DNA of 64,000 bases from an uncultured Gammaproteobacteria bacterium (lineage in GTDB: Bacteria > Patescibacteriota > Microgenomatia > UBA12405 > JAHJSD01), in contig CAYRYE010000001.1 of NCBI GenBank assembly GCA_964428655.1, positions 73,328 through 137,327 of the forward strand. The letters are read 5' to 3'. The notes beneath the pieces are model-generated. The model searched no databases, was not told the origin of the DNA, and saw nothing but the letters and a program-made list of their open reading frames with translations. This document shows, piece after piece, positions 29,819 through 57,851 of this stretch (positions are counted from its first letter, which is position 1; the number at the start of each line of letters is the position of its first letter). Made by a program: the position numbers and the translations under genes.

Positions 29819-29827
29819 AACTAACTA

Positions 29828-31875: not shown

Positions 31876-31898
31876 GTTAAAAGAAAATTAAGAGAATT

Positions 31899-33437: not shown

Positions 33438-34003
33438 AACAAAAATTAATACTTTTCCATAAGAGAATTGAAAGATTAAAGCTGAATAAGGACTTCTTTG
33501 TTAGTAGTCGTGTGAATATTAACTATGAGAAAGACAGAGGAACGTACACTTCTTTTAAGGGCCCTGATACTAAGACGGTGAAGGCATTTCTTTTAGATTT
33601 TAGGCCATTTGTATTAAATGATGAGCCGATAAATTTTGACCATATCAGTAACTTGGTTTACAAAACAAGTCCTGACAATAAAGTCAAAGAAAATACTGCC
33701 AAAGCAAAAGATGGTTGGAATAAACTACTGGAGCGTAAGAAATCATCCCCCGTTGGTGGATTAAGGCTTCAGATTGATGGGAAACAACTTTTATCTCAGG
33801 AGAACTTGGATATGTGGTTAAATGCCGACTATTTTCATCTAGATGAAAATAAACGAGATTTAATGACAAGGATTAGCAGTAACCCAATGGGTCAAATTTC
33901 TTATTTTGTTTTTGTTGATTTATTGCAACGTCTGAGTCAAATGTTGTTTTGGTTTGATAACAAAGTAATAAATCCAATTTTAGGTAAACACAAATCTAAA
34001 TAA
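33434..34003 (+). CDS. hypothetical protein nested between hsdM and hsdS
   Basis: Its start overlaps the hsdM stop (ATGA). 189 aa, no recognisable domain. Confidence 0.5.
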
Positions 34004-34007
34004 AACT

Positions 34008-34514
34008 ATGGACAATTTTTTTATAAAAATTTATACAGAGCAGATAAAAGACCAGCTTAGTGAGGCTGAACTTTGTTTTGAGAAAATTAAAAACAACTTA
34101 AAAAATAGCCCTGTTGTGTTTGGTGCAATCCATCACTTTTTGGTGCACGTCTCTAATGTAGCTAAATTGATACAACCGAAAACTAAGGAAGATAATGATT
34201 TTCGAAAATACAGAGCCATCTCACTTAAGAGAGCATACCCCAATTTGCCAACCCTTAATCCAAATGAAATCCATGTTCGAAATGATTATGAACATTACGA
34301 TGAAAGAATTGACCATTGGGTTATTAACTCTAAAAAACACAATTATGCAGATAAAAACATTGGTCCAATCACGGCAATTAAAGGTTTAGAACCAAAAGAT
34401 AATTTTAGGTGGTTTGACGATACAAAAATGACACTTTATTTCTGTGGCAGAGAATATCATCTGGACGATTTGTTTTCATACATTCAAAAAGTTAAAAAAG
34501 CAATAAATGAATAA
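34008..34514 (+). CDS. hypothetical protein, possible HEPN-like (Rx4H motif) accessory protein
   Basis: 168 aa. Contains RNDYEH (an Rx4-6H motif) in a predicted helical context. Its stop overlaps the hsdS start. Confidence 0.4.
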   Translation: MDNFFIKIYTEQIKDQLSEAELCFEKIKNNLKNSPVVFGAIHHFLVHVSNVAKLIQPKTKEDNDFRKYRAISLKRAYPNLPTLNPNEIHVRNDYEHYDERIDHWVINSKKHNYADKNIGPITAIKGLEPKDNFRWFDDTKMTLYFCGREYHLDDLFSYIQKVKKAINE

Positions 34515-35790
34515 TAAACAAGTTAATTACAAGCAGACAGAAATTGGTGAGGTTCCTAAAGACTGGCAAGTGGAACCAGTTTCCAGAGCTTCAGAAATAA
34601 TAAGTGGCGGTACTCCCAAAACATCTAAAGCTGAATACTGGGGCGGAAAAATACCCTGGTTGTCAGTTGCAGATTTCAATAATGAGCAAAGATATGTTTA
34701 TGATTCAGAAAAAACTATAACGGAAAAGGGATTAAACGGTAGTAGCACAAATATCCTTAAAAAGGAAATGTTGATTATCTCGGCGAGAGGTACAGTAGGT
34801 GTGTTGGCTCAAGTTGGCAGAGACATGGCCTTTAACCAATCCTGTTACGGCTTGAATTCAAAACAAGGTTATATTAACGATTTTCTTTACTACTCTCTTA
34901 AAAGTCGCATGGGCGCTATAAGACAAAAAACTCATGGTTCCGTTTTTTCAACTATCACGAAAAGAACTTTTGATGATATTTTTTTACCCAAACCAAAAGT
35001 TGAAGAACAACAACAAATAGCCTCAGTTCTTTCTTCTCTCGATGACAAAATTGAGCTGAATCGCAAAATGAACCAGACCCTTGAAGAAATGGGTAAAGCT
35101 CTTTTTAAGAATTGGTTTGTAGACTTTGAATTCCCTAATAATGAGGGAAAACCATATAAATCAAGCGGTGGCAAAATGGTGGAGAGTGAGCTCGGAGAGA
35201 TACCAAAAGGATGGGATGTTGCACAATTAAAAGAATTTGGAGAAATAGTTTGTGGTAAAACACCTCCAAAAAAGAAAAGTGAGTATTTTGGCGGAAATGT
35301 TCCGTTTATCAAAATACCAGATATGCACAGTCAAATGTTTATAGTTAAGACGGAAGACTCTCTAACTAAGGAAGGTATGGATTTTCAAAAACAGAAAAAT
35401 TTGCTAAAAGATTCTATCTGTGTAAGTTGTATTGCCACAGTAGGGTTAGTTTGCATCACAAGCCAGGTGTCTCAAACCAATCAACAAATTAATTCAATTG
35501 TTCCAAGTGAGAGATTTTATAGGGAATATTTGTATTTCACACTGAGTTCAATGGACAGGACTTTAAGAGATTATGCAAGCGGAGGCTCGGCAACGCTAAA
35601 TCTAAATACAGGTAGTTTTTCGAAAATATATATCCTAAAACCAAGCAAGGAGACTTTACAACTGTTTAATGAGCACAACTCAAATTTATTTGAAAAAGTT
35701 TTAATGAATGAAAAGGAAAACATAAACCTTGCTCAAGCTCGAGACTCTCTTCTACCAAGATTAATGAGTGGGAGGTTGAGAGTAAATTAA
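34507..35790 (+). CDS. hsdS: type I restriction-modification system specificity subunit HsdS
   Basis: Two target-recognition-domain halves separated by a central conserved region (LDDKIELNRKMNQTLEEMGKALFKNWFVDFEFP) and a C-terminal conserved repeat (LLPRLMSG). Confidence 0.85.
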   Translation: MNNKQVNYKQTEIGEVPKDWQVEPVSRASEIISGGTPKTSKAEYWGGKIPWLSVADFNNEQRYVYDSEKTITEKGLNGSSTNILKKEMLIISARGTVGVLAQVGRDMAFNQSCYGLNSKQGYINDFLYYSLKSRMGAIRQKTHGSVFSTITKRTFDDIFLPKPKVEEQQQIASVLSSLDDKIELNRKMNQTLEEMGKALFKNWFVDFEFPNNEGKPYKSSGGKMVESELGEIPKGWDVAQLKEFGEIVCGKTPPKKKSEYFGGNVPFIKIPDMHSQMFIVKTEDSLTKEGMDFQKQKNLLKDSICVSCIATVGLVCITSQVSQTNQQINSIVPSERFYREYLYFTLSSMDRTLRDYASGGSATLNLNTGSFSKIYILKPSKETLQLFNEHNSNLFEKVLMNEKENINLAQARDSLLPRLMSGRLRVN

Positions 35791-35792
35791 GT

Positions 35793-36932
35793 ATGAAAAA
35801 ATATCAATTAACCAGAGTATCAAGTAACGTAGCCAGAACAGATGACATTGTTATTGAGGAAAGCGGTACTTTTAGAAAAGTGTTTCGTGGAATTGTTATT
35901 AAAGACAATCCAAAAGACCCCAAGGCGACACTGAAAGGCTACATTATTGTTCAAAGAAAGGGGCCTAGGGACGAATGGAAAGACTTGTCTTCAATAAAGT
36001 TGAATGAGTTGAAAAAAGATGAAGGTATAAAATTTGAATTAAAAAGTTTAGCATTACAAAATTTATTTGAGGCATTAAATAACTTATATCGTATTTCAAA
36101 ACAAGAATTGCCCTGGTTAGAGGAGAGCTATGTTGTAGCTAAGGAAGAAGAAATTATCAGGGTTAGTGAAAAGAGGAAAAGTTTTGTAAAAAAATTGCTC
36201 AAACAGGATTATGGAAATGAAGTTTGGGAACAATTGATTGAAACTGAACCCCATCTAGCCACAAGATTAGCTCATTCAAGGATACAAACAGAGCGAGAGT
36301 CTGCTCTCGCTGAATTTGAGGCATCATTGAGCGAAGAAAAGGGTGAAGCGTACTGGCAAACATTCTTTCAAGAAAATGAATGGATTTTTGGGCTGGGTCT
36401 AAAATACCAATATCTACATTTAATTACAGCTCAACCAGATTATGGTGGTGGTAATGTTTTTGGTTCTGGTAGTCAAAGAGGCGACTATCTTATGGACACC
36501 ACGTCTGATAGCAAATTTACAGTTTTGGTAGAAATTAAGAAGCCAGAAACGCCGCTTCTCGGTAGTGATGAGTATAGAAATGGAGCATGGGAATTGGGAG
36601 AAGATTTAGTTGGTGGTGTTTCTCAAATTCAAGTGAATGCTAATAAGTGGGAGGTGGCTGGTTCAAGAACCGATGAAAACAGAGAAGCGTTAGAAGACGT
36701 GACGACATGTAGTCCAAAGGGTCTTTTAATAATTGGGCATTGTGACCAGCTTGATAGTGCCTCAAAAAAGAAAACCTTTGAATTGTATAGGCAAAATTTA
36801 GTTAATCCAGAAGTAATTACCTTTGACGAACTGCATGAAAGGGCAAAATTTATAGTTAACAACTCATCAGATGAAACTTCACCTGAGCCTGTAGAAGTTG
36901 ATATTTCAGAGGATGAAAAAATACCTTTTTAA
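35793..36932 (+). CDS. Shedu-like DUF4263 family PD-(D/E)xK nuclease (SduA-like) nested in the type I R-M operon
   Basis: C-terminal region [16 protein letters not shown]...RGDYLMDTT...[15 protein letters not shown]...VSQIQVN...LLIIGH matches the DUF4263 pattern (WQxFF..N.WIFG, D...vEiK, Q). Confidence 0.55.
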
Positions 36933-36934
36933 GT

Positions 36935-39900
36935 ATGACTAAATACACAGAAACAGACCTAGAATTAGCAACATTAGACTGGCTTGAAGAGCTTGGTTAT
37001 ACCATTGTGGGTGGTCCAGAAATTGCACCACCTCCAGATGGGGAAAGACCAGAGCGCAAAAGCTATTCTGATGTTGTTTTGGAAGACAGGCTCCGTTCTG
37101 CTATTGAGCAATTCAACCCTGGTATTCCAGAAGATGCCAAAGAAGAAGCTTTTAAGAAGGTCTTGCAGGCCACTAATACCACACCCAGCCTTGTACTTAA
37201 CAACAAAATATTTCACTCATATTTGAGGGATGGTGTGGATGTTGAGTATATGCGAGATGATGGTTCTGTTGCTGGAGATAAAGTAAAACTAGTTGACTTC
37301 AAAAATATTGATAAGAATGATTTTCTGGCAGTTAACCAGTACACAGTTATTGAAAACAACGTAAACAGACGCCCTGATGTGGTGGTATTTATAAATGGGT
37401 TGCCTGTAGTTGTTATTGAACTTAAAAACCCAGGTGACGAGAAGGCCACAGTTAAAAGTGCCTTTAACCAGATTCAGACCTACAAGCAAGATATTCCCTC
37501 ACTCTTTGTATATAACGAGCTATCAATTATTAGCGATGGCCTAGAGGCTAAAGTAGGCACCATTAGTGCTGATATTGAGTGGTTTACTCGCTGGAGAACA
37601 GTTGATGGTGAAGAATTGGCCCCCAATGCTGTACCTCAGCTAGAAGTTTTACTAAAAGGTATTTTTGATAAAACAAGACTTTTGGATTTAATAAGCAATT
37701 TTATTGTTTATGAAACCGATGGTGAGAAAACAATTAAAAAGGCCGCCGCCTATCATCAATACTTTGCAACTAATAAAGCTATTGAAAGCACCATTAAAGC
37801 AACCATGGAGGAGGGAGATAGAAGGGCTGGTGTAGTTTGGCATACTCAAGGGTCTGGCAAGAGTTTAACCATGACCTTTTATGCAGGCAAGGTGATACAA
37901 GCTCTAAACAACCCCACTCTGGTAGTTTTGACCGATAGAAATGACTTGGACAATCAGCTTTTCGGTACATTCTCCAGGTGTTCAGATTTACTTAGGCAAG
38001 CACCTAAGCAGGCTAATGATAGAGATGAGTTGCAAGAACTTTTAAGTGTTGCTTCTGGTGGTGTGGTATTTACGACAATACAGAAGTTTTTACCTGAAAA
38101 TGGACATAATACTTACCCACAACTTTCTGACAGAAAAAACATTGTTGTTGTAGCCGATGAAGCTCATAGAAGCCAATATGAATTTATCAAAGGCTTTGCT
38201 CGTCACATGCGTGATGCTCTGCCCAATGCTTCGTTTATTGGTTTTACAGGTACTCCAGTTGAATTGATGGATAGGAATACAAGAGCAGTTTTTGGTGAGT
38301 ATGTTGATGTTTATGATGTAACCAGAGCAGTTGAAGATAAGGCCACGGTGCCTATTTATTACGAAGCTAGACTAGCAAGAATAGAACTGAAAAAAGATGA
38401 GCAACCTAAGATTGACCCTGAATTTGAAGAGTTAACCGAAGGTGAAGAGGTAGAACGTAAGGAAAAACTAAAGAGTAAATGGGCCAGGCTTGAGGCTATG
38501 GTTGGCTCAGAAAAAAGAATTAGTTTGGTGGCCCGTGACTTAGTTGAGCATTTTGAGAATCGATTAACTGCAATTGAAGGAAAAGGAATGATAGTTGCCA
38601 TGAGCAGAAGGATTGCGGTGGACCTGTATAACGAGATTATTAAACTTCGACCTAACTGGCATAGTGACGATGATAAAAAGGGTGTATTGAAGGTAGTTAT
38701 GACTGGTTCAGCCTCTGACCCTTTGATTTTCCAACCACATATTAGACCCAAACACGCCTTAAATGAATTAGCTGGTAGGATGAAAGACCCAGATGATGAG
38801 ATGAAGTTAGTGATTGTTAGAGATATGTGGCTAACTGGTTTTGATGTTCCTTGTCTTCACACTATGTATATAGATAAACCAATGAAAGGTCATGGTTTGA
38901 TGCAGGCTATTGCTCGGGTAAACAGAGTTTACAAAGACAAGCAAGGTGGTTTGATAGTTGACTACATTGGCATAGCTCCCCAACTAAAAGAAGCCCTTTC
39001 TTATTACTCGGCAAGTGACAGGCAAGAAACAGCTATACCGCAAGACAAGGCAGTTTCTCTGATGCTTGAAAAATACGAAGTGGTTAAGGGCATGTATCAC
39101 GGCTTTGACTATCAAAAATACTTAACAGGTACTCCAGCAGAGCGAACCCAGACTATTTCAGGCGCTACAGACTATATATTGGGGCTTAAAGATGGCAAGA
39201 AACGCTACTTAAAGGCAGTTTCTGAGCTATCTAAGGCATTTTCTTTGGCTGTTCCTCATGATGAGGCAATTAAGATTAGAGATGAGGTTTCTTTCTTCCA
39301 GATTGTACGAAGCGGGATTGTAAAAATGGAGCCTGTAGGCGGTGGTCCAACTGATGATGACTATGATGTGGCTATCAAACAAATAGTATCTTCTGCGGTT
39401 GCTTCAGACCATGTGATTGATATTTACTCTGCCGCTGGGATAAAAGCCCCAGATATTTCTATATTTTCAGAAGAGTTTTTAGCTGAAGTTAGGAACATGA
39501 AGCACAAGAATGTGGCTTTGGAATTGTTAAAGAAACTTTTGAATGATGAGCTTAGAACCATGACTAAAAAGAACTTGGTTATGTCTCGGTCCTTTTCTGA
39601 CATGCTGGCTGAGACTATCCGTAAATACCAGAATAGAACCCTTGAAGCGGCTCAAGTGATAGCCGAACTTTTAGAACTTGCTAAAAAGATACGAGATGAA
39701 AAAGATAAGGGTAAGGATTTAGGTTTGAGTGAAGACGAAGTGGCTTTTTATGATGCTTTGGCAAATAACGAAAGCGCAGTAAAAGAGCTGGGAGACAAAA
39801 CGCTCAAAGCTATGGCAATAGAGTTGGTTGATATGCTTCGCAAGAATACCACGATTGACTGGACTATAAAGGAAAGTGTCCAGGCTAAGCTGAGAGTTTA

Positions 39901-40015
39901 CATTAAAAGATTGCTGAAGAAATATAAGTATCCGCCAGACAAGCAAGAGGGAGCTACTAAGATAGTATTAGAACAGGCAGAGTTACTAGCTAAAGATTGG
40001 ACAGGAGAAAAATAA
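36935..40015 (+). CDS. hsdR: type I restriction enzyme R subunit HsdR
   Basis: 1026 aa with SF2 helicase motifs TQGSGKS (Walker A), VADEAHRSQ (DEAH), and a C-terminal HsdR domain. Confidence 0.9.
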
Positions 40016-40393
40016 ATGACTCAACTACAAATATATCCCATCAAATGTGAATGCGGTAACTTGATAGATGTTAACCTCTATCAAAGTGTAAATGTCACGG
40101 TAGACCCATCGCTTCTTGGAAAAGTAAAGAAAAGAAAAATAAACAACTATAAGTGTGATAAGTGTGGTGCAGAAAGTGAGCTTGCATATCAATTTTTATT
40201 TGTTGATATGAAAAAAGGAATCTGGGTATGGTGTTATCCAGAAGCGGAAAGAAAAAACAAAGACAAAATTGAGGAAGAACTTCTAAAAACGCAAGCTTTG
40301 GAAAATATGTTACAGAAACTCGGACAGCCCAAGCCCACAATAGTATTTGGCTACGATGAGCTTTTAGATAAATTAGATTCAAACAAAAAATAA
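40016..40393 (+). CDS. zinc-ribbon small protein (two CxxC-type pairs)
   Basis: CECGN...CDKCG. Its start abuts the hsdR stop. Confidence 0.45.
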   Translation: MTQLQIYPIKCECGNLIDVNLYQSVNVTVDPSLLGKVKKRKINNYKCDKCGAESELAYQFLFVDMKKGIWVWCYPEAERKNKDKIEEELLKTQALENMLQKLGQPKPTIVFGYDELLDKLDSNKK

Positions 40394-41151
40394 TGTCTCA
40401 ATACTACAACGCCAAACGTTCAATAAAATATTGCTACCAGCCAGGGTCTAAACAACCTTTTAAGTTTAGTCGTTCAAAGATTGACCTATTTTTACAATGT
40501 CCAAGGTGTTTTTATATGGATAGGCGCCTGGGTGTTGCTAGACCTCCTGGATTCCCTTTTGCCTTGAATAGTGCCGTAGATAAGCTTCTAAAGCTCGAGT
40601 TTGACGCTCACAGGGTCAATGGCACCCAACATCCTCTACTTGAGAAATATGACGTGGATGCTAAACCAGTAGCTCACGAAAAACTAGATGACTGGAGACA
40701 AAACTTTGTAGGGGTTCAGTATTTGCACAAACCCACTAACTTATTAGTCTTTGGAGCAATTGATGACTTATGGATTAACTCTAAGGATGAATATATTGTG
40801 GTTGATTATAAATCTACAAGTAAAGGTGAAGCGATAACTGAACTAGATAAGGATTGGCACGAAGGCTATAAACGCCAGATGGAGATTTACCAGTGGTTGT
40901 TAAGGCAGAATGAGTACAAAGTTTCCGATACTGGTTACTTTGTTTACTGTAATGGCATTACTGACAAGAAAGCCTTTGATGCCAAGCTTGAATTTAATGT
41001 GACCTTAATCGCTTATGAGGGAAATGATAACTGGGTTGAGAAAGCTATTAAGGGCGCACACAAATGCTTAAACGGTGACTCAATCCCTGAAGCTGGTGAA
41101 GATTGTGACTATTGTGCTTATAGGGAAGCGGTAAAGGAGATTGAGTCTTAA
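40393..41151 (+). CDS. PD-(D/E)XK nuclease, Cas4/RecB-like with Fe-S cysteines (second paralog in window)
   Basis: N-terminal LQCPRCFY, nuclease core GAIDDL...EYIVVDYKS, QxxxY-like RQMEIYQ, and C-terminal HKC...EDCDYC. Confidence 0.65.
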   Translation: MSQYYNAKRSIKYCYQPGSKQPFKFSRSKIDLFLQCPRCFYMDRRLGVARPPGFPFALNSAVDKLLKLEFDAHRVNGTQHPLLEKYDVDAKPVAHEKLDDWRQNFVGVQYLHKPTNLLVFGAIDDLWINSKDEYIVVDYKSTSKGEAITELDKDWHEGYKRQMEIYQWLLRQNEYKVSDTGYFVYCNGITDKKAFDAKLEFNVTLIAYEGNDNWVEKAIKGAHKCLNGDSIPEAGEDCDYCAYREAVKEIES

Positions 41152-41230: not shown

Positions 41231-41947
41231 TTATATTTCCAACAAAAACTTGATTAAAAACTGCAAATAATAAACTCCCGTCAAGATAAAAATCGAAGCT
41301 ATTACTTTTCTACCTACCTTTTCAATTTTTTGCACAACAGAGAAAGCTTGACCAACCCTTTTCATACTAAAGGCTATTAGAAAAGAGAAAACAATTACTG
41401 GCAGACCAGTGCCTAGACCAAATAAAGGTGGCAATAAAAGGGCTTCGTTGGATTTCAAAACTAAAGGGATAAGGACTCCAAAAAACAAAACTCCGCTATA
41501 AGGACAAAAAGCCAAAGCAAAAAGACAACCTAAAAGAAAAGAGCCGAGATAGCCTTTAGTAGCGAGTTTTTCTTTGAGACGCTCCACTTTGTCATTTTTA
41601 GTTTTGATGTTTAACTTGATAGCATCAAACATGACTAAGCCAATTATTATCAGTATTGGCCCCAATATTTTTTCTCCCCAGCCTTGAAAAATACGTGAGA
41701 CTTCAAAAGAAGAGAAGCCAAGGTAAATTAGAGAGGCCAAAACCGTGTAGCTAAGGCCACGGCCAATGGTATAACAAAGGCCATTTAGAAGTGTATTCTT
41801 AGGGTTTTTAATCTCTTTGGAAATATAAGCAATAGCAGTAATGTTGGTAGCCAATGGGCAAGGACTGATAGAGGTAAGAATTCCAGTTAGAAAAGCGGTT
41901 AAGAGCGGAATGTTGTATTGGTCAATAAGCAGATTAATATAATCCAT
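41231..41947 (-). CDS. CcdA/DsbD-family transmembrane thiol-disulfide electron transfer protein
   Basis: 6 TM segments with Cys in TM1 (SISPCPLATN) and a second conserved Cys (LAFCPYSG). Confidence 0.6.
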   Translation of the reverse strand: MDYINLLIDQYNIPLLTAFLTGILTSISPCPLATNITAIAYISKEIKNPKNTLLNGLCYTIGRGLSYTVLASLIYLGFSSFEVSRIFQGWGEKILGPILIIIGLVMFDAIKLNIKTKNDKVERLKEKLATKGYLGSFLLGCLFALAFCPYSGVLFFGVLIPLVLKSNEALLLPPLFGLGTGLPVIVFSFLIAFSMKRVGQAFSVVQKIEKVGRKVIASIFILTGVYYLQFLIKFLLEI

Positions 41948-41950
41948 GGT

Positions 41951-42466
41951 TTACTTTCCCAATAAGGTATCAAGTTTGTCTTCGAAATAATCAGTAAATT
42001 TTTCTTGATTATTAACCAGTCGCCAAACTGTTGTATCCTCTTCGATATTGTATTTGTCATCGCTAATAGCATTAATAAACAAAGACGAGCCCCTAGCCTG
42101 ATACTTAACAACAATCTCTTTGTTTTCTGGTAATTCAATATTAATATCCTTGAAGACTACTTTTCCTGATTGATATTCTTCTGGAAACTTATCTTTGATG
42201 GTTTGTAAGGCGTATTTACCAACAGTGATACAAGAAAAGCACTGGTGAGTAGCATGGAAATGAACCACTTCGATTTTATCCGCTGGTATTGTCTCTTGAC
42301 TTGCTAATGAGGAATTATTTTCTTTTTGCGGTTCAATTGAAGTTGGTTGAGTTGAACCTAGAATAGAGGAGCTTTTAATCTCTTTATTAGAAAAGCCTTT
42401 TAAGCCAAAAAACAGGGCGATTATTATTAAGATTACACTGATAAAGAAAATTATTTTTTTATTCAT
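41951..42466 (-). CDS. secreted CxxC protein (thioredoxin-like?)
   Basis: Signal/TM, then a HFHATHQCFSC motif. Confidence 0.4.
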   Translation of the reverse strand: MNKKIIFFISVILIIIALFFGLKGFSNKEIKSSSILGSTQPTSIEPQKENNSSLASQETIPADKIEVVHFHATHQCFSCITVGKYALQTIKDKFPEEYQSGKVVFKDINIELPENKEIVVKYQARGSSLFINAISDDKYNIEEDTTVWRLVNNQEKFTDYFEDKLDTLLGK

Positions 42467-42475
42467 TTTTTTGTT

Positions 42476-43633
42476 TTAGCCAGTTAGACCATAGATAAAA
42501 CCAGCTAAAGTGGTTAAGACAACAATTGAACCTGCATAAACCAGCATTTTTTTAGTACCGATTAGCTTTCTGATAACCAAAAGCCCTTGTAGTGACAAAA
42601 CGGGGTCGGCTAGCATGTAAGCCATTAAAGGGCCTTTACTCATACCTAGCTTCATAAAGTTTTCAGCTATTGGTACTTCTACTAAAGCTGGAAAGTAGGC
42701 CAAGGCTCCAAACATAACAGCAATAAAGTTGGTAAGTAAATTGTTTTGACTGGCTATAGCCTGGAATTGTTCTTTGGGAATAAGATGGGTAATAGTAGCC
42801 GCAAAAAACACACCCACTAAAAGTAAGGGTACAATCTGACTGACAAATTTAATTGTTTCATTCCACCAATCACCTCTTTTTTCTTTAGATAGCCAGGAAA
42901 AAGTCATTATCAACTGCAACAATACTAGGGGAAGAATTAAGATATATCTTAAATTACTGCCGATAGGGGCTGTGCCAACTACCAGAATTGCCAGCATTAT
43001 TCCCCAGAACCAGACATTTTTGGGACCTTTAAGGCTACTAGCGTCTTGATTTACCACCTGAAGGTTTCCGTCTTCTTTGCCATTTCCAAAAACAAGTTCC
43101 ATTATCAAGCCAACCGAAATAGCAAATATAACTGAGAGGATAAATCTGACAATACTAAATTCCCAGCCGATTCTCTGGCCAGTAAAAAGGATAGTGACAA
43201 TATTAAAGGCAGGGCCAGCGTAAAGAAGAGTAATAGCAATTCCCAAGCCAGCGCCTTTTTTCCAGATACCAGCAAATAAAGGCAAAATCGTGCAGGAGCA
43301 AACTTCAATTAAAAAACCTGTGGTGACAGCGATTAAATAGGCCAGCCATTTTTTGGTTTTACCGCTTAGATATTTTAGGATTGACTGTGAATCAATGAGG
43401 CTATTGATAGCTCCAGCAATAAAAAAGGCAGGAACTAAACAAAAAAGAACATGAGCAGAGAGATAGTCAACTAAGCCTAGCCAGCCTTGATAAACCGCAC
43501 CACCGATTAGGTTTTGAACTGATTCTTGAGCTAAAAAACCGCCTATTTGTTTCTGCCATAAATAGATGATTAAATAGGCACCTCCCAAAAGGCCCAAGAC
43601 CCAGTTTTTCTTAATGATTTTCATAAGATTCAT
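42476..43633 (-). CDS. DUF318/ArsP-like permease
   Basis: Many TM segments plus the family-typical CxC motif (EVCSCTILP). Usually paired with a small thioredoxin. Confidence 0.65.
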   Translation of the reverse strand: MNLMKIIKKNWVLGLLGGAYLIIYLWQKQIGGFLAQESVQNLIGGAVYQGWLGLVDYLSAHVLFCLVPAFFIAGAINSLIDSQSILKYLSGKTKKWLAYLIAVTTGFLIEVCSCTILPLFAGIWKKGAGLGIAITLLYAGPAFNIVTILFTGQRIGWEFSIVRFILSVIFAISVGLIMELVFGNGKEDGNLQVVNQDASSLKGPKNVWFWGIMLAILVVGTAPIGSNLRYILILPLVLLQLIMTFSWLSKEKRGDWWNETIKFVSQIVPLLLVGVFFAATITHLIPKEQFQAIASQNNLLTNFIAVMFGALAYFPALVEVPIAENFMKLGMSKGPLMAYMLADPVLSLQGLLVIRKLIGTKKMLVYAGSIVVLTTLAGFIYGLTG

Positions 43634-43636
43634 AGT

Positions 43637-43888
43637 TTATTTTTTCTCTTTCTGAATAAGTTTTTTAATTTTCTCTACATCGTCTACAGAACCTGCTATT
43701 GCTGGCTTACCATTTATTGCCAGCACAGGACTGGACATTACTCCCATATCTATCATTTTTTGAACACCTTCTTGACCTGTTAGATATTCAACTTCCTCTT
43801 TTAAGCCAGTTTCTTCAACAGCTTGTTTAGTTAGTTCGTATAGTTTTTTACAGGTTGGACAACCTGAGCCTAAGACTTGAATTTTCAT
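43637..43888 (-). CDS. thioredoxin-family 'redox-active disulfide protein 2'
   Basis: 83 aa with an N-terminal CPTC active site, about 80 aa long. The canonical partner of DUF318 permeases. Confidence 0.7.
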   Translation of the reverse strand: MKIQVLGSGCPTCKKLYELTKQAVEETGLKEEVEYLTGQEGVQKMIDMGVMSSPVLAINGKPAIAGSVDDVEKIKKLIQKEKK

Positions 43889-44226
43889 TTTTTAACACCC
43901 CCTGCTTTAAGAAAGATTTGTAATTTATTAAGACCATCTTTAGTGAGGGAGTAAAAAACCTGACGAGCATCTTTGCCTTGACGTTTCTTAATCCAGCCAG
44001 TTTCAACTAAATCTGATAAATGGTGGGAGATAAGGCTTTGTTCTTTTTCCAGGCAGTTTTGAATTTCGCAAACACAATGTTCTCTGTTTAAGAGAATAAG
44101 AAGAATTTTTAGTTTAGTCTTTGTAGATAAAGTTTTGGCTACCGTTAACAAAGACTCTGTTGTTTTAGGGTCTAGTAAACCACAATTACATGAACAGTTA
44201 TTCATATAATCTATTATATTACTCAA
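43885..44226 (-). CDS. ArsR/SmtB-family metalloregulator
   Basis: HTH with the metal-site motif EHCVCEI (ELCVCDL-like). Confidence 0.75.
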   Translation of the reverse strand: MSNIIDYMNNCSCNCGLLDPKTTESLLTVAKTLSTKTKLKILLILLNREHCVCEIQNCLEKEQSLISHHLSDLVETGWIKKRQGKDARQVFYSLTKDGLNKLQIFLKAGGVKK

Positions 44227-44295
44227 GCTGGATTAGTCAACACACGTTGGTTTTAACAGAGGGAAGTACTGTAGTTTGAGTGTTGTTATTTTGAA

Positions 44296-44448
44296 TTAAA
44301 GTCTTACAAACTCTCCATTACTTACTTTCACCACTGCATACTTTGGTTTAGACACTAAGACCCTGTTAAGAACCTCTAACTGGTTTTTCACTCTTGCCAA
44401 AGACTCACCAGAGAAGATGTCATAGAGAACAAATGGGGAACCTGGGAG
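44296..44448 (-). repeat. copy 1 of a 150-bp duplicated gene-3' module (encodes ...PGSPFVLYDIFSGESLARVKNQLEVLNRVLVSKPKYAVVKVSNGEFVRL)
   Basis: About 80% nt identity to 46026-46178. The tracked ORF 44296..44622 extends it upstream with unrelated sequence antisense to the HIT gene. Confidence 0.6.
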
Positions 44449-44526
44449 CTCTGTATTTTTCCTCAAGTAGTGTGGATGACCCGAATGGGATGCTCGAACC
44501 TTTGGTTGGTGTAGAATTGAGGAAAT

Positions 44527-44961
44527 ATGGTGAAAAGAATTTGGGATAAAGAAAACAAATATCTTGGTGGGTTGGTGAAAGAGTTTGATCATTGGGTGTG
44601 GGAGGTGAGTTATCGTCAGCACACTTTGGGATGCTTTATTTTATTTGCTAAGCGATCAGTTGAGAGGATCAGTGAGTTAAGACCCAAAGAGTTAATTTCT
44701 TTGGGGGGTGTGATGAGAGAAGTAGAGGATGCGCTAAGTAAGATTAAGGTGTTTAGACCCGATAGGTTTAATTACTGGCAGATGGGAAATGGTCTTCCTC
44801 ACCTACATTTTCATGGATTCCCTAGATATGAGAAGCCGAGATACTTTGATGGCAAAAAATGGATAGATAAAACTTGGGGAACTGTGCCTATGTGGTTGAG
44901 AAAAGATGTTAGTCGCTCTTTAGTTGAGAAGATTAAAGAAGAGATTGTGTTTCATTTGTAG
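44527..44961 (+). CDS. HIT-family (histidine triad) protein
   Basis: HLHFHGFPR histidine triad, 144 aa. Confidence 0.65.
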   Translation: MVKRIWDKENKYLGGLVKEFDHWVWEVSYRQHTLGCFILFAKRSVERISELRPKELISLGGVMREVEDALSKIKVFRPDRFNYWQMGNGLPHLHFHGFPRYEKPRYFDGKKWIDKTWGTVPMWLRKDVSRSLVEKIKEEIVFHL

Positions 44962-45054
44962 ATGTGACCGCTGATTTTAAGCAAAGCAGGTTCTTACTTC
45001 CTCTATTGCGGGGAGCAGTAATGACATTTTGGGTAGTCTTTTAACGCCTCAATC

Positions 45055-46020
45055 TTAATAAAAATAATACCCATCCTCTTTTTTTATAACCGCATAAGTA
45101 TTACAGTAAGTTCTATTTCCCAGCCAAGGACCTGTCGGCTGGTCTTGGGTTCGTTCCCAATTTATTCCATCAGTTGAAATAGCTTTTACAGGGTACCTTA
45201 AATTAGAACCTGGCTTATTATCGGCAGGAACATGGCCTCCGTATGCGGAGTAATAATCTCCTTCATCAACTATCGCAAACTGGAAACTAAAAGGTGTTTG
45301 TATTCTAAATCTTTTAGTGAAGTATCTTCCGTCTGCTGATTCCAAAACATCAGCCTCATCAAGATTTTCCGTGCGGGTATAAATATAATACCTTTTGGAA
45401 TTTTTTTCATAAAGAACAGTAAAATCCACAGCTTCCAAATCAATCCCTTGTGCCCCAGTAATTTTTCCTTCAAAAAAATAGGTGTGACCATCTTGTGAAT
45501 ATGCGCTTAATAAGAAAGCGGTACCGTGACAACCATCTTTTCCATCAGTAAAATACATCCTGTAACCACCTTCCGGAAGCTCAACAAGGGTTGGGTCTCC
45601 ACACGCTATTATGTCTTGGTCAAGGTTGTTTATTTCGGGTTTGAACTTTGAGAAGTTCCAACCGTCACGACTTTGCAAGAAGCCAACACCTTTTATACCA
45701 TGGCCAGTTTGTTTGTCTTCAATCCCATTGCGGTCGGAAAAATCAAGTCCAGCCAAAATAATTGTGCCGTCTCTTAAGAGAATCCCGCTTGAGCCACCCC
45801 AAAGGCATCCCACAGCGCCTCGTTTTTCAAAATTAATTCCATTGGAACTATAGCAAGCTCCTATTACTTTAAAATTCCCCGGTAAATATCTTAAAAATAT
45901 CCTGAATATAGAATGATGAGAATTACTAGTTAAAAAAATTTCAACTATAACAAAACAAAAAACAATTACTAAAAAAATAATTATGCTGTATAGATTTTTT
46001 ATTTTTTTAGACATTGGCAA
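45055..46020 (-). CDS. secreted beta-propeller protein, glycoside-hydrolase-like (GH43/GH32-like fold?)
   Basis: N-terminal TM/signal. Repeated Gly/Asp-rich blade-like segments (GDPTLVELPEGGYRMYFTDG, ISTDGINW). Confidence 0.35.
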   Translation of the reverse strand: MPMSKKIKNLYSIIIFLVIVFCFVIVEIFLTSNSHHSIFRIFLRYLPGNFKVIGACYSSNGINFEKRGAVGCLWGGSSGILLRDGTIILAGLDFSDRNGIEDKQTGHGIKGVGFLQSRDGWNFSKFKPEINNLDQDIIACGDPTLVELPEGGYRMYFTDGKDGCHGTAFLLSAYSQDGHTYFFEGKITGAQGIDLEAVDFTVLYEKNSKRYYIYTRTENLDEADVLESADGRYFTKRFRIQTPFSFQFAIVDEGDYYSAYGGHVPADNKPGSNLRYPVKAISTDGINWERTQDQPTGPWLGNRTYCNTYAVIKKEDGYYFY

Positions 46021-46025
46021 ATCAA

Positions 46026-46178
46026 TTATAGTCGAACAAGCTCTCCATTGCTAACTTTTACCACCGCATACTTTGGTTTTGCAATTAAGACTCTATTAAG
46101 AACTTCTAACTGATTCTTTACCCTCGCTAAAGACTCTCCAGAGAAGATGTCATAGAAGACAAATGGGGAACCTGGAAA
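46026..46178 (-). pseudogene. copy 2 of the duplicated 3' module, in frame with the upstream membrane-protein ORF and separated from it by a single TAG
   Basis: Translation FPGSPFVFYDIFSGESLARVKNQLEVLNRVLIAKPKYAVVKVSNGELVRL*. Frame continuity checked codon by codon across the TAG at 46179-46181. Confidence 0.5.
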
Positions 46179-46646
46179 CTAGAGAGAGGTTGTTTTGAAT
46201 TTTTTTTCGTCTACCCAAGACAGAATGGAAAATAGAATAATTAAAATAAAGCCAGGAAGCAGGTGGTTTCTCCACCCAGGACCTAGAAGTTTCTGAACAC
46301 CAAATGTTACAGGAACCATAAAAAGTATTGCTATTACTGCAATATGATTATCTCCTTTAACATTAGATTTTTTATCAAGACTTAGGAGTTTTCCAACAAT
46401 TTTCAGAAACACAAATAGCAAAACTAAATATATTGGGAGGGCAAAAATAAAATATGAACGATAGCTGATTGCGAAAATTTCAGAAAATCTTGTTGCTAAA
46501 AAATGGTCCCACGGTTGTTCTGTGGCGAAGGCACTAAAGTCTTTTTGAAAGAAAATTACTCTAAGCCAGTTAAAAAGAATTAAAGAAACATTTATGACAT
46601 AAAGAAGAAGAAAGGGAATCTTGGCAATTTTGGAATTTATGCCCAT
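46179..46646 (-). CDS. hypothetical membrane protein (155 aa)
   Basis: 4 predicted TM helices. The C-terminus ends at a TAG that is in frame with the downstream 50-codon conserved module. Confidence 0.5.
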   Translation of the reverse strand: MGINSKIAKIPFLLLYVINVSLILFNWLRVIFFQKDFSAFATEQPWDHFLATRFSEIFAISYRSYFIFALPIYLVLLFVFLKIVGKLLSLDKKSNVKGDNHIAVIAILFMVPVTFGVQKLLGPGWRNHLLPGFILIILFSILSWVDEKKFKTTSL

Positions 46647-46789
46647 TAATTAATTTATACAACATTAATGATAATTTTTCTACTTAAATTGTTGCCTTGG
46701 GGGAAATTAGGTACTAAAGAGGTTCGAACATTTTCCATTACCCTGAGCAAAGTGTACGAACTTAGAAGCTATTTTGATATACTTCAGGT

Positions 46790-47524
46790 GTGAACAAAGT
46801 TTATCGCCAAGGACTAATAAACAAGATAGATAAAGCGATCAAAGACGCCTCGCTCGTATCACCAGAGTTGGAACATAAGTATCTAATTGGCAAGTATAAA
46901 GAGATTCTCTTAGGTCAACTGATCAACCCTTTTTTGGCCTCTCAGTATAACACCGGATCGGGAAAGATAGTCGATTTCCAAAATCATATCTCTAGCGAAG
47001 TTGATATTGTGATTTATTCGAAAGGATTAATTCCACCTCAACTATTCTCATCAGGTTTTGGTGTTTATCCTTCAGAAAGTGTTTTGTCTTGCATTGAAGT
47101 AAAGAGTAATCTAGACGGCGCCGAACTAAAAAGCGTTTTTGATAAATATAAAAAAATTAAAAATGAAATAAAATACTCAGCCGGCAAATTTGATAAACAC
47201 GACAAACCTATCAATCATCTTCTTTCAAACTTCTCTAGAGATGTTTTTGCCTTTAAATCAATAGATAATATTTTTAATAAGTACAAGGAAATAGATACTG
47301 CTTGGGATAGCGATGAACCAATAGTAAATAGTTTTTGTGTTGTTGGTCGGGGTTGGTGGGGGTTTTGTGATAAGAAGTGGAAATTTGTACCGGCAGATGA
47401 ACACCACGAAGAAGTTATTAAATTTCTTTCTACATTAATCAATACCCTACCTAAAGTAGCAAAAAGTAGAGGATGTCCTAGGATAGACCAATACTTAAAT
47501 GTTGGTGAGGCAAAGGAACTATAA
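46790..47524 (+). CDS. hypothetical protein, possible PD-(D/E)xK-like nuclease fold
   Basis: 244 aa. SSEVDIVIY...SCIEVKSN resembles a D...E-x-K arrangement. Otherwise unassigned. Confidence 0.4.
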   Translation: MNKVYRQGLINKIDKAIKDASLVSPELEHKYLIGKYKEILLGQLINPFLASQYNTGSGKIVDFQNHISSEVDIVIYSKGLIPPQLFSSGFGVYPSESVLSCIEVKSNLDGAELKSVFDKYKKIKNEIKYSAGKFDKHDKPINHLLSNFSRDVFAFKSIDNIFNKYKEIDTAWDSDEPIVNSFCVVGRGWWGFCDKKWKFVPADEHHEEVIKFLSTLINTLPKVAKSRGCPRIDQYLNVGEAKEL

Positions 47525-47588
47525 ATTGTAAAAGTTGATTATTCTCAATTATCCAGTTTCGAAGACTGTATACTGTCGGGAGCCAGCG
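47522..47588 (+). repeat. intergenic repeat motif, copy A (TAAATTGTAAA...ATCCAGTTTCGAAGACTGTATACTGTCGGGAG)
   Basis: Shares its terminal 11-mer and a roughly 33-nt 3' block (about 85% identity) with 50171-50237. Both copies start at a gene stop codon. Confidence 0.55.
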
Positions 47589-49781: not shown

Positions 49782-50180
49782 GTGGAGCTTCAAGTAGGGG
49801 TTAAGATTTTACTTAAGAATAATGAGGGAAAATATCTTATTGTTCACAGATTGTTAGAAAAGTATCCTGGTGCGAAAGGGTCTTGGGATATTCCCGGAGG
49901 AAGAATTAATAGGGGAGAAACTCTCTTGGCAAACCTAAAAAGAGAGGTTAGAGAAGAGACAGGACTAGCTCTTATTGAAACACCGGAAATATTTGGTGTT
50001 CAAGACATCCTAAGAGTGAAGAACAAACATATAATAAGATTGACTTATCAGGGCTTAACTAACGGAAAAGTGAATCTTAGCGAAGAGCATGATGATTATC
50101 TCTGGTTGTCTTTAGATAAGTTAAAATTTTTTCCAGACCTTGATGTTTATTTAAAAAATCTTCTAATTAGTAAATTGTAA
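49782..50180 (+). CDS. Nudix hydrolase
   Basis: Canonical Nudix box GGRINRGETLLANLKREVREETGL. Confidence 0.75.
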   Translation: MELQVGVKILLKNNEGKYLIVHRLLEKYPGAKGSWDIPGGRINRGETLLANLKREVREETGLALIETPEIFGVQDILRVKNKHIIRLTYQGLTNGKVNLSEEHDDYLWLSLDKLKFFPDLDVYLKNLLISKL

Positions 50181-50237
50181 AGGCGATATCATTTCTAACA
50201 ATCCAGTTTCGAAGCTTGTATGCCGTGGGGAGTAAAT
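50171..50237 (+). repeat. intergenic repeat motif, copy B
   Basis: TAAATTGTAAA...ATCCAGTTTCGAAGCTTGTATGCCGTGGGGAG. Confidence 0.55.
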
Positions 50238-53973: not shown

Positions 53974-54657
53974 ATGAGGATTCTAGTTGTTGAAGATGAG
54001 CATAAAATAGCCAATTCCATAAAAAAGGGGCTGGAACAGGAATCCTATGCCGTTGATGTGGCTTATGATGGCGAGCAAGGTTTTGATTTAGCAGTAACTG
54101 AAGACTACGATGTGATTGTTTTAGATTTAATGCTTCCTAAGGTGGGTGGAATGGATATCTGTAAAAAACTTAGAAAAGAAGAAAATATCCATACTCCTAT
54201 ATTGGTGTTAACTGCCAAAGGGCAACTGGATGATAAGGTTAAGGGCTTAAATGCGGGCGCCGATGATTATTTGGTTAAACCATTTGCATTTGCGGAGCTT
54301 TTGGCTCGAATTAGAGCTTTAACTCGAAGACCCAAAAATAGCTTAAATCCTGTTTTAGAGGCCAAGGATTTAACCCTAAATACTTTGACCTTTGAAGTGA
54401 AACGGGCGGGAAAACAGACAAAGCTATCAAAAAAAGAATATGCCCTTCTTGAGTACCTTTTGAGACATAAAGACAAAATTCTCACCAAAGAGCAAATTAT
54501 TAACCATGTTTGGGACTATGATTCTGATGTTTTATCTAACACAGTCGAGGTTTATATTGGTTATTTAAGAAATAAAATTGACAAACCATTTAAAAATAAA
54601 AAGCCTCTTATTCAAACCATAAGAGGCTTTGGATATAAAATAGGAGGCAAAGAGTAA
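53974..54657 (+). CDS. OmpR/PhoB-family response regulator
   Basis: Receiver domain (VVEDEH, DVIVLDLMLP, K) plus a winged-helix C-terminal domain (IRGFGYKI). Confidence 0.9.
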   Translation: MRILVVEDEHKIANSIKKGLEQESYAVDVAYDGEQGFDLAVTEDYDVIVLDLMLPKVGGMDICKKLRKEENIHTPILVLTAKGQLDDKVKGLNAGADDYLVKPFAFAELLARIRALTRRPKNSLNPVLEAKDLTLNTLTFEVKRAGKQTKLSKKEYALLEYLLRHKDKILTKEQIINHVWDYDSDVLSNTVEVYIGYLRNKIDKPFKNKKPLIQTIRGFGYKIGGKE

Positions 54658-55715
54658 TGTTTCGTTCAGCACGAGTAAAACTGACTGGCTGGTATCTTCT
54701 TATCATTATGCTTATTAGCGTGGTTTTTAGTGCGGTGATTTATACTTCCACCACTAGAGAATTGGAGCGTGGTTTTAGACGAGCGGAAATGCGCTTTAGG
54801 GGAGAAGAATTAGACACTCCATTCCACCGACAGTGGCCTGGGCGCTGGGAAAACATAAACCCAACTCCAAGAGAAACAGACTTGAGTTTTTCTTTTATTG
54901 AGGATATAGAGGCGGCCAAGAAAAGAGTTGCTTTGAATTTGTTAATGATAAACGGGGCGATTTTAGCTATCTCGGCTGCGGCTGGATATTTCTTGGCAGG
55001 TAAGACCCTAACACCAATAGAGGTAGCTCTGGACGAACAGAAGCGATTTGTGGCCGATGCTTCTCATGAACTGCGAACTCCGTTGACTGCTCTCAAGACT
55101 TCAATAGAGGTAGCTTTAAGAAAGAAAAGACTGGTAGATAAAGATGCTAGGGCAATAATGGAAAGCAGCCTTGAAGATATAGACGGCCTGGAATCTTTGG
55201 CAAATAATCTCTTAAGTCTAACTCAGTATCAGCAAGGAAACAGCGCTTTTGTTTTTCAACCAACTGATATTAACGAGGTGGTAGAAAATGCACACAAGAA
55301 AATTTCTCCTTTGGCTAAGAAAAAGAACATAAAAATTAGCTTGAGGACTTCAAGTCAAGTACTAGAAGCCAATAGACAAAGTTTGGCAGAGATGATGCTT
55401 ATTTTTCTTGACAATGCGGTTAAATACACACCTAAAAGCGGCAAGGTTGTGGTAACAACAAAATCAGACAGAAAAAACCTTATTGTTGAAGTTAATGATA
55501 CAGGTATTGGTATTTTAAAAGAAGATATTCCCCATATATTTGATAGATTTTATCGAATTGACCAATCTCGTTCTAAAGACAGTGTGGCTGGTTTTGGATT
55601 AGGCTTGTCATTGGCTAAAAGAATTATTGAATTACACAAGGGGTTTGTTGAAGTAGAAAGCGCTGAGGGTGAGGGCACGACTTTCACCGTTAAGCTTCCC
55701 TTCAAACACTCCTAG
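54657..55715 (+). CDS. sensor histidine kinase
   Basis: Two TM segments, H-box ADASHELRTPLTAL, N/G boxes (LDNAVKYT, DTGIGI, GFGLGLSLAK). Confidence 0.9.
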   Translation: MFRSARVKLTGWYLLIIMLISVVFSAVIYTSTTRELERGFRRAEMRFRGEELDTPFHRQWPGRWENINPTPRETDLSFSFIEDIEAAKKRVALNLLMINGAILAISAAAGYFLAGKTLTPIEVALDEQKRFVADASHELRTPLTALKTSIEVALRKKRLVDKDARAIMESSLEDIDGLESLANNLLSLTQYQQGNSAFVFQPTDINEVVENAHKKISPLAKKKNIKISLRTSSQVLEANRQSLAEMMLIFLDNAVKYTPKSGKVVVTTKSDRKNLIVEVNDTGIGILKEDIPHIFDRFYRIDQSRSKDSVAGFGLGLSLAKRIIELHKGFVEVESAEGEGTTFTVKLPFKHS

Positions 55716-55762
55716 CGATTCTTTCTCAGCGTTTTCTCAGCTTTTATTATTAGAATTGCAGC

Positions 55763-57124: not shown

Positions 57125-57135
57125 CTAACCACAAT

Positions 57136-57849: not shown

Positions 57850-57851
57850 TC

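Follow-up and report, generated by a model that had tools for sequence, protein, structure and literature searches.

Orphan C-terminal tails of a large serine recombinase look like seams in a stack of gene islands beside a Patescibacteria tRNA-Asn gene

Introduction

In archaeal SSV-type tyrosine integrases the attachment (att) site lies within the integrase open reading frame (ORF), an arrangement said to be exclusively archaeal (PMC8371274, PMC7253208), and in the Myxococcus phage Mx8 integrase IntP, attP lies within the 3′ coding part of int (PMC6070905). Integration of Mx8 provides the gene with a new 3′ end and alters the properties of the integrase (PMC6070905; Tojo et al., 1996, as reported in PMC4383910). 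Here we analyse a 64,000-nt stretch of DNA from a member of the Patescibacteria (positions 73,328 to 137,327 of contig CAYRYE010000001.1, GenBank assembly GCA_964428655.1), hereafter the window, which holds two copies of a 50-codon coding segment that we term the tail. Judged by its homologues, the tail forms the C-terminal end of large serine recombinases (LSRs), and its copies look like seams in a stack of inserted gene islands.

The closest parallels are the SSV-type (‘suicidal’) integrases of archaeal viruses and plasmids, whose integration at a tRNA gene splits the integrase into two pieces that border the element (PMC8371274, PMC7253208). The present case differs in that the enzyme is an LSR of Patescibacteria and only its last ~50 codons would be detached, the catalytic and DNA-binding domains staying intact and the gene being re-terminated in the tRNA rather than inactivated. 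Integration of Mx8 likewise re-ends the integrase gene (IntP/IntX) from an attP in its 3′ coding part, but this is a tyrosine integrase of a single phage, for which no conserved family of orphan tails or cassette array has been described. The tyrosine recombinase chemistry of the SSV family and Mx8 IntP was not found here, the window enzyme having a Resolvase-type serine catalytic domain; the system works like the SSV/Mx8-type split integrases and is outside those tyrosine families.

Other known systems share further traits. Staphylococcal cassette chromosome elements (SCC/SCCmec, with CcrAB LSRs) form tandem arrays at the 3′ end of rlmH, with units that often lack a recombinase and with anti-phage genes (PMC11470126). 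The window resembles them in its serine-recombinase tandem array at the 3′ end of one conserved gene and in its defence cargo, but their target is rlmH and the one here a tRNA. In SCC elements the ccr genes are internal, and integration is not known to split them. Classical tRNA islands with the Islander signature show a repeat of the tRNA 3′ end, an integrase beside the tRNA, defence or accessory cargo and tandem arrays (PMC4383910, PMC12424338). As in these, an intact tRNA stands at one end, a short repeat like the tRNA 3′ end at the other, and the integrase beside the tRNA; Islander-type integrases, however, are tyrosine enzymes, and the repeat here is just ~9 nt. Mycobacteriophage integration-dependent immunity, reportedly set out by Broussard and co-workers in 2013, also has attP in a coding sequence and is said to change the C-terminus and behaviour of the product upon integration; there the split gene is reportedly a repressor, the lost segment a degradation tag and the integrase a tyrosine enzyme, whereas here it is the recombinase that would be split. 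Integrons may be analogous in their co-oriented arrays of small, mostly one-gene units with a conserved element associated with the recombination site, but they use the tyrosine recombinase IntI and folded attC sites, with neither a tRNA target nor a coding tail; the junctions here are coding tails plus a tRNA-like core, not attC hairpins, and IntI was not specifically searched for.

One prophage with a serine integrase has been described as having a common core of 8 bp (PMC9303363), and a 2014 survey stated that serine recombinases targeting tRNA genes were not known (PMC4383910). Our literature search, limited in coverage, found no report of such targeting after that survey and no direct precedent for a serine integrase with attB in a tRNA gene or attP inside its own gene.

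Results and Discussion

Two diverged tail copies under selection

44296 to 44448, minus strand: tail 1 (type-1 tail, copy 1), 90% amino-acid identity to the C-terminus of the protein P0104.
46026 to 46178, minus strand: tail 2 (type-1 tail, copy 2), orphan last ~50 LSR codons plus stop, 80% amino-acid identity to the P0104 C-terminus.
46179 to 46646, minus strand: gene for a 155-aa membrane protein, complete, the conserved chromosomal left border of the variable array, ending with a genuine TAG.

A first-pass annotation, made from the letters of the window alone, had described two segments of 153 nt as about 80% identical and as encoding the same 50-residue peptide. Translation confirms the peptide on the minus strand for both, and the identity is in fact slightly higher, since 44294–44450 and 46024–46180 form a direct repeat of 157 nt with 83% identity and a spacing of 1730. 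Twenty-two of the 50 codons differ, 18 of them synonymously and four by conservative replacements (L/F, V/I, S/A, F/L), and only the shared minus-strand frame is open, the other frames being closed. Nonsynonymous and synonymous divergence (dN and dS; Nei–Gojobori, NG86) are 0.05 and 1.09. Low dN with high dS marks a selected coding sequence and excludes chance similarity, and the ratio indicates long divergence under strong selection on the peptide. Tail 2 has an intact reading frame and no start codon. The possibility that the tail is a diverged tRNA or other RNA was considered and rejected, ARAGORN and Rfam being empty there and the substitutions of coding type.

That the copies are direct repeats 1730 bp apart would also fit local tandem duplication of a ~1.7-kb segment followed by divergence. 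This is very improbable, being already contradicted by a shared part of only 157 nt at a dS of 1.09; moreover, each copy is about as close to the copies of other genomes as to its partner, and the tail-2 cargo unit occurs alone in other genomes.

The tail as a recombinase C-terminus

In a first search the sole match to the tail was P0104, a 220-aa gene fragment cut by the contig end, with its last 50 residues 82% identical to the tail. P0104 alone gave only noise against Pfam, while its homologues carry Recombinase (PF07508) and Zn_ribbon_recom (PF13408) domains. In alignments, LSR homology ends at ‘LPG’ (P0104 residues 171–173), past which many homologues read LDSNQEP, WDSNPQP, VDSDHEP or QDSNLRP. 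Such LDSNQEP-type ends are antisense translations of tRNA T-arms; other homologues have alternative conserved tails. An exhaustive profile search of 1.84 billion proteins, which used all 220 P0104 columns and hence was dominated by the recombinase part, again yielded many LSRs that lose homology at position 172–173; its best 150 hits included no LSR with the tail and two orphan tail ORFs, P0156 and P0160. The AlphaFold2 (AF2) model of P0104 has the LSR coiled coil at a predicted local distance difference test (pLDDT) score of ~90, then disordered residues 136–185, which contain the short junction sequence described below as the core.

The tail is contiguous and in frame with a recombinase ORF in P0104 (locus L001) and in the 540-aa LSR of locus L030. 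Both window copies are detached from a recombinase, and L021 is a decayed contiguous case. A scan of viral contigs found no tail, and the tail, a 108-aa open frame, the membrane protein and a 321-aa cargo gene (below) had no Pfam match. On this comparative evidence the 50-aa peptide is the C-terminus of an LSR.

Tails and cores at other loci

The search for the module elsewhere, which the first-pass annotation had recommended, found the tail at 16 loci in scans of genome and metagenome contigs, to which L023 and a diverged copy in L030 were added later; with L007 and L001 being the same place, this makes 17 other loci in total. An LSR ORF runs into the tail only at L001/L007 (P0104) and L030. 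At L021 a decayed LSR remnant lies upstream of the tail with a stop in between, and at the remaining loci there is an in-frame stop 0–30 codons upstream or the contig ends after a few unrelated codons. DNA upstream of the tail is unrelated in every locus. In a DNA alignment of 17 sequences, conservation sets in abruptly on the left at GCTCCCAGG, which is antisense to the 3′ end of a tRNA and is hereafter called the core; on the other side it runs to the stop codon, and beyond it only where loci have the downstream gene in common. Among 11 intact tails, first, second and third codon positions account for 24, 11 and 45 variable columns, with a median dN/dS of 0.10 at dS near 1.

Might the tail instead be an independent small gene, for example for a directionality factor or regulator, with a start of its own and occasional fusion to a recombinase? 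Gene callers did give two stand-alone ORFs, P0156 and P0160, and the codon before CTC is ATG, GTG or TTG in 6–7 of 16 copies. Across loci, however, that codon varies (TAG four times, GAG, CAG, AGG, GGG, TGG, TTG, GTG, ATG), the four TAGs standing directly before the core in copy 2, L009, L017 and L020. No internal in-frame start is conserved, TTG/GTG of copy 1 being TTA/GTA in copy 2, and with unrelated upstream DNA at every locus there is no conserved ribosome-binding site or promoter; a conserved start codon with an initiation region was thus not found, and the left boundary is that of the recombinase/tRNA core. We consider a small gene improbable, and, with no start codon conserved, the fallback of the first-pass annotation, in which the copies are simple paralogous small genes that each start at a codon of their own, is likewise unsupported.

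The codon phase of the core is the same in LSRs (TGG CTC CCC GGG) and in tails (TTG CTC CCT GGT), so that a crossover in the core would yield an in-frame protein of 493 + 47 = ~540 aa. This is the length of LSR family members with contiguous tails. One such member with a type-3 tail, P0352, is on a contig that also carries a TraG/TrwB-like gene, which suggests a plasmid or conjugative element.

The membrane gene and its TAG

Tail 2 lies, as the first-pass annotation had stated, in frame with the membrane-protein ORF, with the TAG at 46179–46181 as the sole separator, and its similarity to copy 1 starts at the first codon after the TAG or, depending on the alignment, 1–2 nt earlier. The membrane gene ends ..CTCTCTAG. 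From this position it had been suggested that read-through of the TAG or a recent nonsense mutation links the membrane protein to a 50-aa domain. When a fused query (155 aa + Q + tail) was used for homologue search, 103 membrane-protein homologues from Patescibacteria (Microgenomates, Shapiro-, Roizman- and Moranbacteria), nearly all of 140–167 aa, covered only the first ~73–75% of the query (~155 residues), and the tail was present in none. Longer homologues, where inspected, had their extra length at the N-terminus, orthologues ended within a few residues of TSL, and a cluster of near-identical proteins had 12 members of 152–155 aa. On the independent metagenome contig L006 the same TAG is followed by unrelated DNA. 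TAG is an ordinary stop in the window, ending 8 of 45 long ORFs (TAA 25, TGA 12). With no orthologue fused to the tail and TAG a normal stop, fusion, read-through, recoding and nonsense mutation are refuted, and we give them next to no probability; the first-pass annotation had itself listed this orthologue pattern as a refutation. The in-frame TAG is simply the natural stop of a complete chromosomal gene that borders the array by chance; agreement in frame has a prior of 1 in 3, TAG stands at this site in several further loci, and at every other locus the tail abuts unrelated sequence.

An LSR reading into tRNA-Asn and a proposed 17.3-kb island

27131 to 28642, minus strand: 503-aa LSR with Resolvase, Recombinase and Zn_ribbon_recom domains (PF00239, PF07508, PF13408; matched at 27134 to 28642).
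27098 to 27172, plus strand: intact tRNA-Asn(GTT), the proposed attB (ARAGORN; Rfam tRNA, 70.6 bits).
44441 to 44449, minus strand: junction core GCTCCCAGG, found in this exact form nowhere else in the window; it overlaps tail 1 by the first 8 nt of the latter.
46171 to 46181, minus strand: degenerate core TAGTTTCCAGG, overlapping the membrane-gene stop and the first 8 nt of tail 2, aligning with GCTCCCAGG.

The window LSR has the full LSR domain set of Resolvase, Recombinase and zinc-ribbon/coiled-coil domains and ends ...VSRDWLPGLDSNQQPAG*. Its ORF passes through TGGCTCCCCGG into the intact tRNA-Asn, whose 3′ end it overlaps by 42 nt, so that its last ~13 codons are antisense to the tRNA; ‘W-L-P-G’ is the reverse complement of CCA, discriminator base and acceptor 3′ strand. 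On the minus strand, 27171–27230 ends ...AGTAGGGATTGG (GATTGG at 27171), and the sequence from 44448 downward reads CTCCCAGGTTCCCC / CTCCCAGGTTCCCCATTTG.... The repeat between GCTCCCAGG at 44441–44449 and GCTCCCCGG at 27162–27170 is short (~9 nt) and weak taken alone. Tail 1 and the LSR are on the same strand, in the same codon phase and 17.3 kb apart, and we propose that tail 1 is the distal end of an island whose other end is the LSR. An intact tRNA, a fragment mimicking its 3′ end and an integrase aboard, as in tRNA-targeting islands, are all present, and L023 and L030 have the same layout.

A tail preceding, on the same strand, an LSR that reads into a tRNA occurs in four cases, namely the window, L023, L030 and L011. 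In L023 the tail is 82% identical to copy 1 and the LSR 84% identical to that of the window, with 11.5 kb between them and a cargo of an OLD-family nuclease beside a UvrD helicase, interpreted as Gabija-like; the tRNA into which this LSR reads contains a group I intron. L030 has, over ~10 kb, a diverged tail, DUF6602, SMODS, type I restriction–modification (R-M) and HTH_17 genes and an LSR that reads into tRNA-Asn, the LSR being 60% and the tail 36% identical to those of the window. Tail divergence thus tracks that of the far-end LSR (LSR/tail identities 84%/82% and 60%/36%). L011 is a 1.4-kb remnant with the tail upstream of an LSR reading into a tRNA. Gene order in the L001 island is the same as in L029, where the terminal LSR has 80% identity to that of the window.

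The tRNAs read into at L011 (2243–2392, minus strand) and L023 (11520–11806, minus strand) contain group I introns (Rfam RF00028, 44.9 and 65.6 bits, respectively), because of which ARAGORN misses them. Several recombinase C-termini (‘..SVTKRSGLS..’) are translated group I introns. At L008 an HsdR with 93.6% amino-acid identity to that of the window adjoins a type-1 tail, and the order tail, PDDEXK, HsdR is conserved.

Array units and their presence or absence in relatives

45055 to 46020, minus strand: 321-aa gene, the single cargo gene of the tail-2 unit, with an N-terminal hydrophobic segment.
45009 to 45016, minus strand: core-like GCTCCCCG, closing the cargo unit.
44527 to 44961, plus strand: HIT-like gene, in a ~560-bp unit (about 45008 to 44450) that is absent in L012.
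47478 to 47585, minus strand: further junction, with an LSR-like remnant ‘..LLKVRW’, core TGGCTCCCG and a type-2 tail (LPTVYSLRNWIIENN...); repeat family D3.
50167 to 50235, minus strand: further junction, type-2 tail (LLPTAYKLRNWIVRNDIAFTIY*).
59590 to 59706, minus strand: further junction, type-3 tail (..EGRNLNINKQFNQIIQVFQDFKLVQDLRKEI..), 59% identical to the tail of P0265 (E 1e-11).

The two genes between the tails had been annotated as a HIT-family gene and a secreted beta-propeller gene. The former stands, narrowly, with a Pfam HIT score of 22.8 bits against a cut-off of 21.5; the 321-aa product had no Pfam, PDB-sequence or PADLOC match, and its beta-propeller assignment is unverified. 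Sequence antisense to the HIT gene does lie upstream of copy 1, as had been noted, but 78 nt of intergenic DNA come first. A recombinase remnant there was tried as a candidate by tblastn extension, and the 80 nt concerned were demoted because DNA similarity to L001 begins only at the core.

The order of tail and cargo gene recurs in L009, L010, L014 and L015, and that of gene, core and tail in L012. At the position of GCTCCCCG, a type-1 tail comes immediately after GCTCCCAGG in L012, GCTCCCCC leads into unrelated DNA in L014, and L009 has ‘..RVSSNWLP’ plus a core. The lack of the HIT unit in L012, with its breakpoint at the core, and the core at the end of the cargo unit indicate that the HIT unit is a further insertion at the core. 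Junction tails are co-oriented within each locus (five in the window, six in L009, five in L021 and three in L014).

L006 is 96% identical in nucleotide sequence to the window up to and including the membrane-gene TAG and, after a gap of 54 unrelated bp, becomes similar again at 85% from the ArsR promoter (window 44248). It lacks the 1.93 kb from 46178 to 44249, which comprise both tails together with the 321-aa and HIT genes between them, and its ArsR operon directly follows the membrane gene. L006 and L012 thus both show presence/absence polymorphism with breakpoints at att-like repeats. An insertion into the 3′ end of the membrane gene with a replacement 3′ end, as the first-pass annotation had envisaged, is half right: relative to the 96%-identical contig an insertion does start right after the TAG, but it lies downstream of a complete gene, brought no replacement 3′ end and contains both copies. 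Closest was the suggestion of a mobile C-terminal module; the module is the C-terminal coding end of the LSR of a mobile element and not of the membrane protein.

The 96% identity in L006 applies to the membrane-gene side (46752–46179) and the 85% to the ArsR side (44248–42946), a drop which indicates that the two sides of the junction have different histories. The resemblance of the 54-bp spacer to a decayed tRNA-Asn T-arm (GTTCGAAC) was unconvincing. Elsewhere the membrane gene is followed 110 nt downstream by a junction of recombinase remnant, core and another tail (L031), by a methyltransferase, a toxin–antitoxin pair and Fic (L003), or by one gene and then a convergent tRNA-Asn ~0.9 kb away (L002). 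Across these contigs the membrane gene is, on comparative grounds, the constant edge of a region whose content varies. No close relative was found to have an empty tRNA-Asn site. A 27-nt motif, GCTCAGG(A/G)TAATGGAAAATGTTCGAAC, lies upstream of the membrane gene in the window (46722–46748, minus strand) and on both sides of it in L006 (1160–1186 and ~591–617); its start resembles a degenerate core, and part of it is present in L013 and L016, 23 nt past the type-1 tail.

A model with attP inside the recombinase gene

We propose, with a probability of roughly 0.7, that attP lies inside the LSR ORF, that integration detaches the last 47–50 codons and that repeated integration built the array. Tails would be the last ~50 codons of LSR genes whose islands insert at a tRNA 3′ end, here that of tRNA-Asn(GTT) at 27098–27172. 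The crossover would fall within the recombinase ORF at a 9–11-nt core, TGG CTC CCN GG (W-L-P-G), i.e. TGGCTCCC(N)GG, which would mimic, in antisense, the CCA end of the tRNA together with its discriminator base and acceptor strand and would sit in the stretch encoding a disordered linker after the zinc-ribbon/coiled-coil domain. Integration would re-terminate the recombinase in the antisense tRNA (...WLPG-LDSNQQPAG*) and strand the codons that follow at the opposite island end, with orientation and codon phase unchanged, against DNA once located downstream of the tRNA. An in-frame recombinase of ~540 aa would be regained upon excision or through an adjacent island of a tandem array, with the tail presumably translated as its C-terminus. 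Serial integration at one site would give a co-oriented array, read on the minus strand as membrane gene–TAG / tail 2 – cargo gene – core / HIT unit – core / tail 1 – ArsR operon – type I R-M/Shedu/nuclease – LSR – core / tRNA-Asn. The comparison of loci favours an att site within the ORF, with its common breakpoint at the core, its ends encoded by either tRNA or tail, and their shared phase. The sequence relationships, common boundaries, presence/absence differences, co-orientation and purifying selection are directly shown by these comparisons, whereas the point of crossover, the capacity for excision and the translation of the tail as part of the recombinase are inferred.

Several points weigh against this model. 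For these elements neither excised circles nor an empty attB nor attP-type reads were seen, so that the evidence is comparative only, and a contiguous LSR with type-1 tail occurs only at junctions in chromosomal arrays (L001, L030), in no demonstrably circular element. The tail-2 unit has no recombinase of its own, the similarity upstream of copy 1 to a recombinase is weak (7/28 identities, not significant), and the AF2 model of P0104 gives the tail, a helix and two short strands, at low confidence (pLDDT ~50) and assigns it no function. LSRs normally do not target attL or attR, so that building an array would require their specificity to be relaxed or the sites to be regenerated. The 17.3-kb island could also be a composite. 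Finally, the cargo gene with its spacers is 96–100% identical in nucleotide sequence to that of L014 and tail 2 just 80–88% (46178–45020 vs L014 6001–7170), a mosaic that implies a second breakpoint at or inside the tail 3′ end, which the simple model does not predict.

Alternatively, with the same architecture, the tails might be non-functional relics, 3′ recombinase fragments left by past recombination or deletion whose low dN/dS dates from an intact-gene phase. Certain copies are indeed decaying (a frameshift in L009, loss of the initial 10 codons in L010 and of 7 codons in L021), the tail-2 unit has no recombinase, and contiguous forms exist at array junctions (L001, L030). Most orphans, however, keep an intact 50-codon frame at dS near 1 and dN/dS near 0.1, and all are truncated at the identical nucleotide, where other LSRs enter tRNAs; furthermore, LSR with tail, expected to be common if it were the sole selected state, is absent from the best 150 hits among 1.84 billion proteins. 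We therefore consider relics unlikely, though less so than a small gene.

Returning to attP within the LSR ORF, a broader and more tentative proposal, to which we give somewhat less than even odds, is that Patescibacteria have a class of LSRs with tRNA targets, attP in their own ORF, a C-terminus switched by integration state and integron-like cassette arrays. Such LSRs would carry the selected 47–50-aa tail in the excised or array state and, once integrated, a stub encoded by the tRNA, which might provide built-in, integration-dependent control of recombinase activity or directionality, and the co-oriented arrays would be small defence and accessory cassettes beside tRNA genes.

If the main model, with attP inside the LSR ORF, is right, the split-integrase design of the archaeal SSV-type and Mx8 tyrosine integrases exists in an LSR too, and serine recombinases use tRNA genes as targets. 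LSRs are prized as genome-engineering tools because they are directional; C-terminus switching would be a testable natural control of directionality or activity, with a type of attB, the tRNA 3′ end, that is universally conserved. The model would also explain cassette shuffling of defence systems (type I R-M, Shedu, Gabija-like and parts like those of cyclic-oligonucleotide-based antiphage signalling systems, CBASS) at one hotspot in ultra-small Patescibacteria genomes and would account, in annotation, for start-less, strongly conserved 50-codon ORF fragments and for recombinase ORFs ‘ending in tRNA’.

Other features of the island and the window

28639 to 30076: recombination module beside the LSR, made up of three ORFs, one of 85 aa that overlaps the start of the LSR, one of 275 aa and one of 82 aa that is excisionase-like.
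31693 to 41151, plus strand: defence cargo, with an HTH_17-like small ORF, type I R-M with Shedu SduA and a PD-(D/E)XK/Cas4-like nuclease (Pfam, PADLOC).
41231 to 44226, minus strand: ArsR, Thioredoxin_3, ArsP permease, a 171-aa ORF and a DsbD_2-like gene (Pfam), five genes that in L021 lie between two type-2 junctions.

The 82-aa ORF of the recombination module (29828–30076, plus strand) was judged HTH_17-like by eye; the layout of reverse HTH_17 gene, small ORF and LSR is also found in L023, L024, L025, L029 and L030. The type I R-M operon (31899–41151) comprises HsdM, two small ORFs, HsdS and HsdR, with Shedu SduA between hsdS and hsdR, and is followed by the PD-(D/E)XK/Cas4-like nuclease gene. 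Near the recombination module, a match to EGFOA RNA at 30472–30585 (minus strand; Rfam 30.8 bits, gathering score 37.7) is probably due to chance.

Beyond the membrane gene, a DUF6602 protein (46790–47524, plus strand) matches PADLOC models of PD-DExK/NucC-type nucleases. In L030 (2280–2987) the DUF6602 gene is beside a SMODS-domain gene, which suggests a CBASS-like effector cassette. In L021, terminator-like hairpins with T runs (~4120–4150, 5970–6000 and 10070–10100; e.g. AAAACCGCCaagaTGGCGATTTTTT) stand directly before several junctions, so that every cassette may have a terminator of its own. Flanked by the junctions at 50235 (type 2) and 59706 (type 3), the window encodes a two-component system (response regulator and histidine kinase) followed by a HlyD-like, ABC and MacB/FtsX-type export system (53974–59075), genes that may be array cargo too. 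A 168-nt direct repeat with 77% identity (8320–8487 and 11421–11588; family D1) lies in two large minus-strand ORFs of about 765 and 736 aa, which are probably paralogous genes. The last part of the window, 62001–64000, has a G+C content of 0.46, compared to ~0.38 elsewhere in it.

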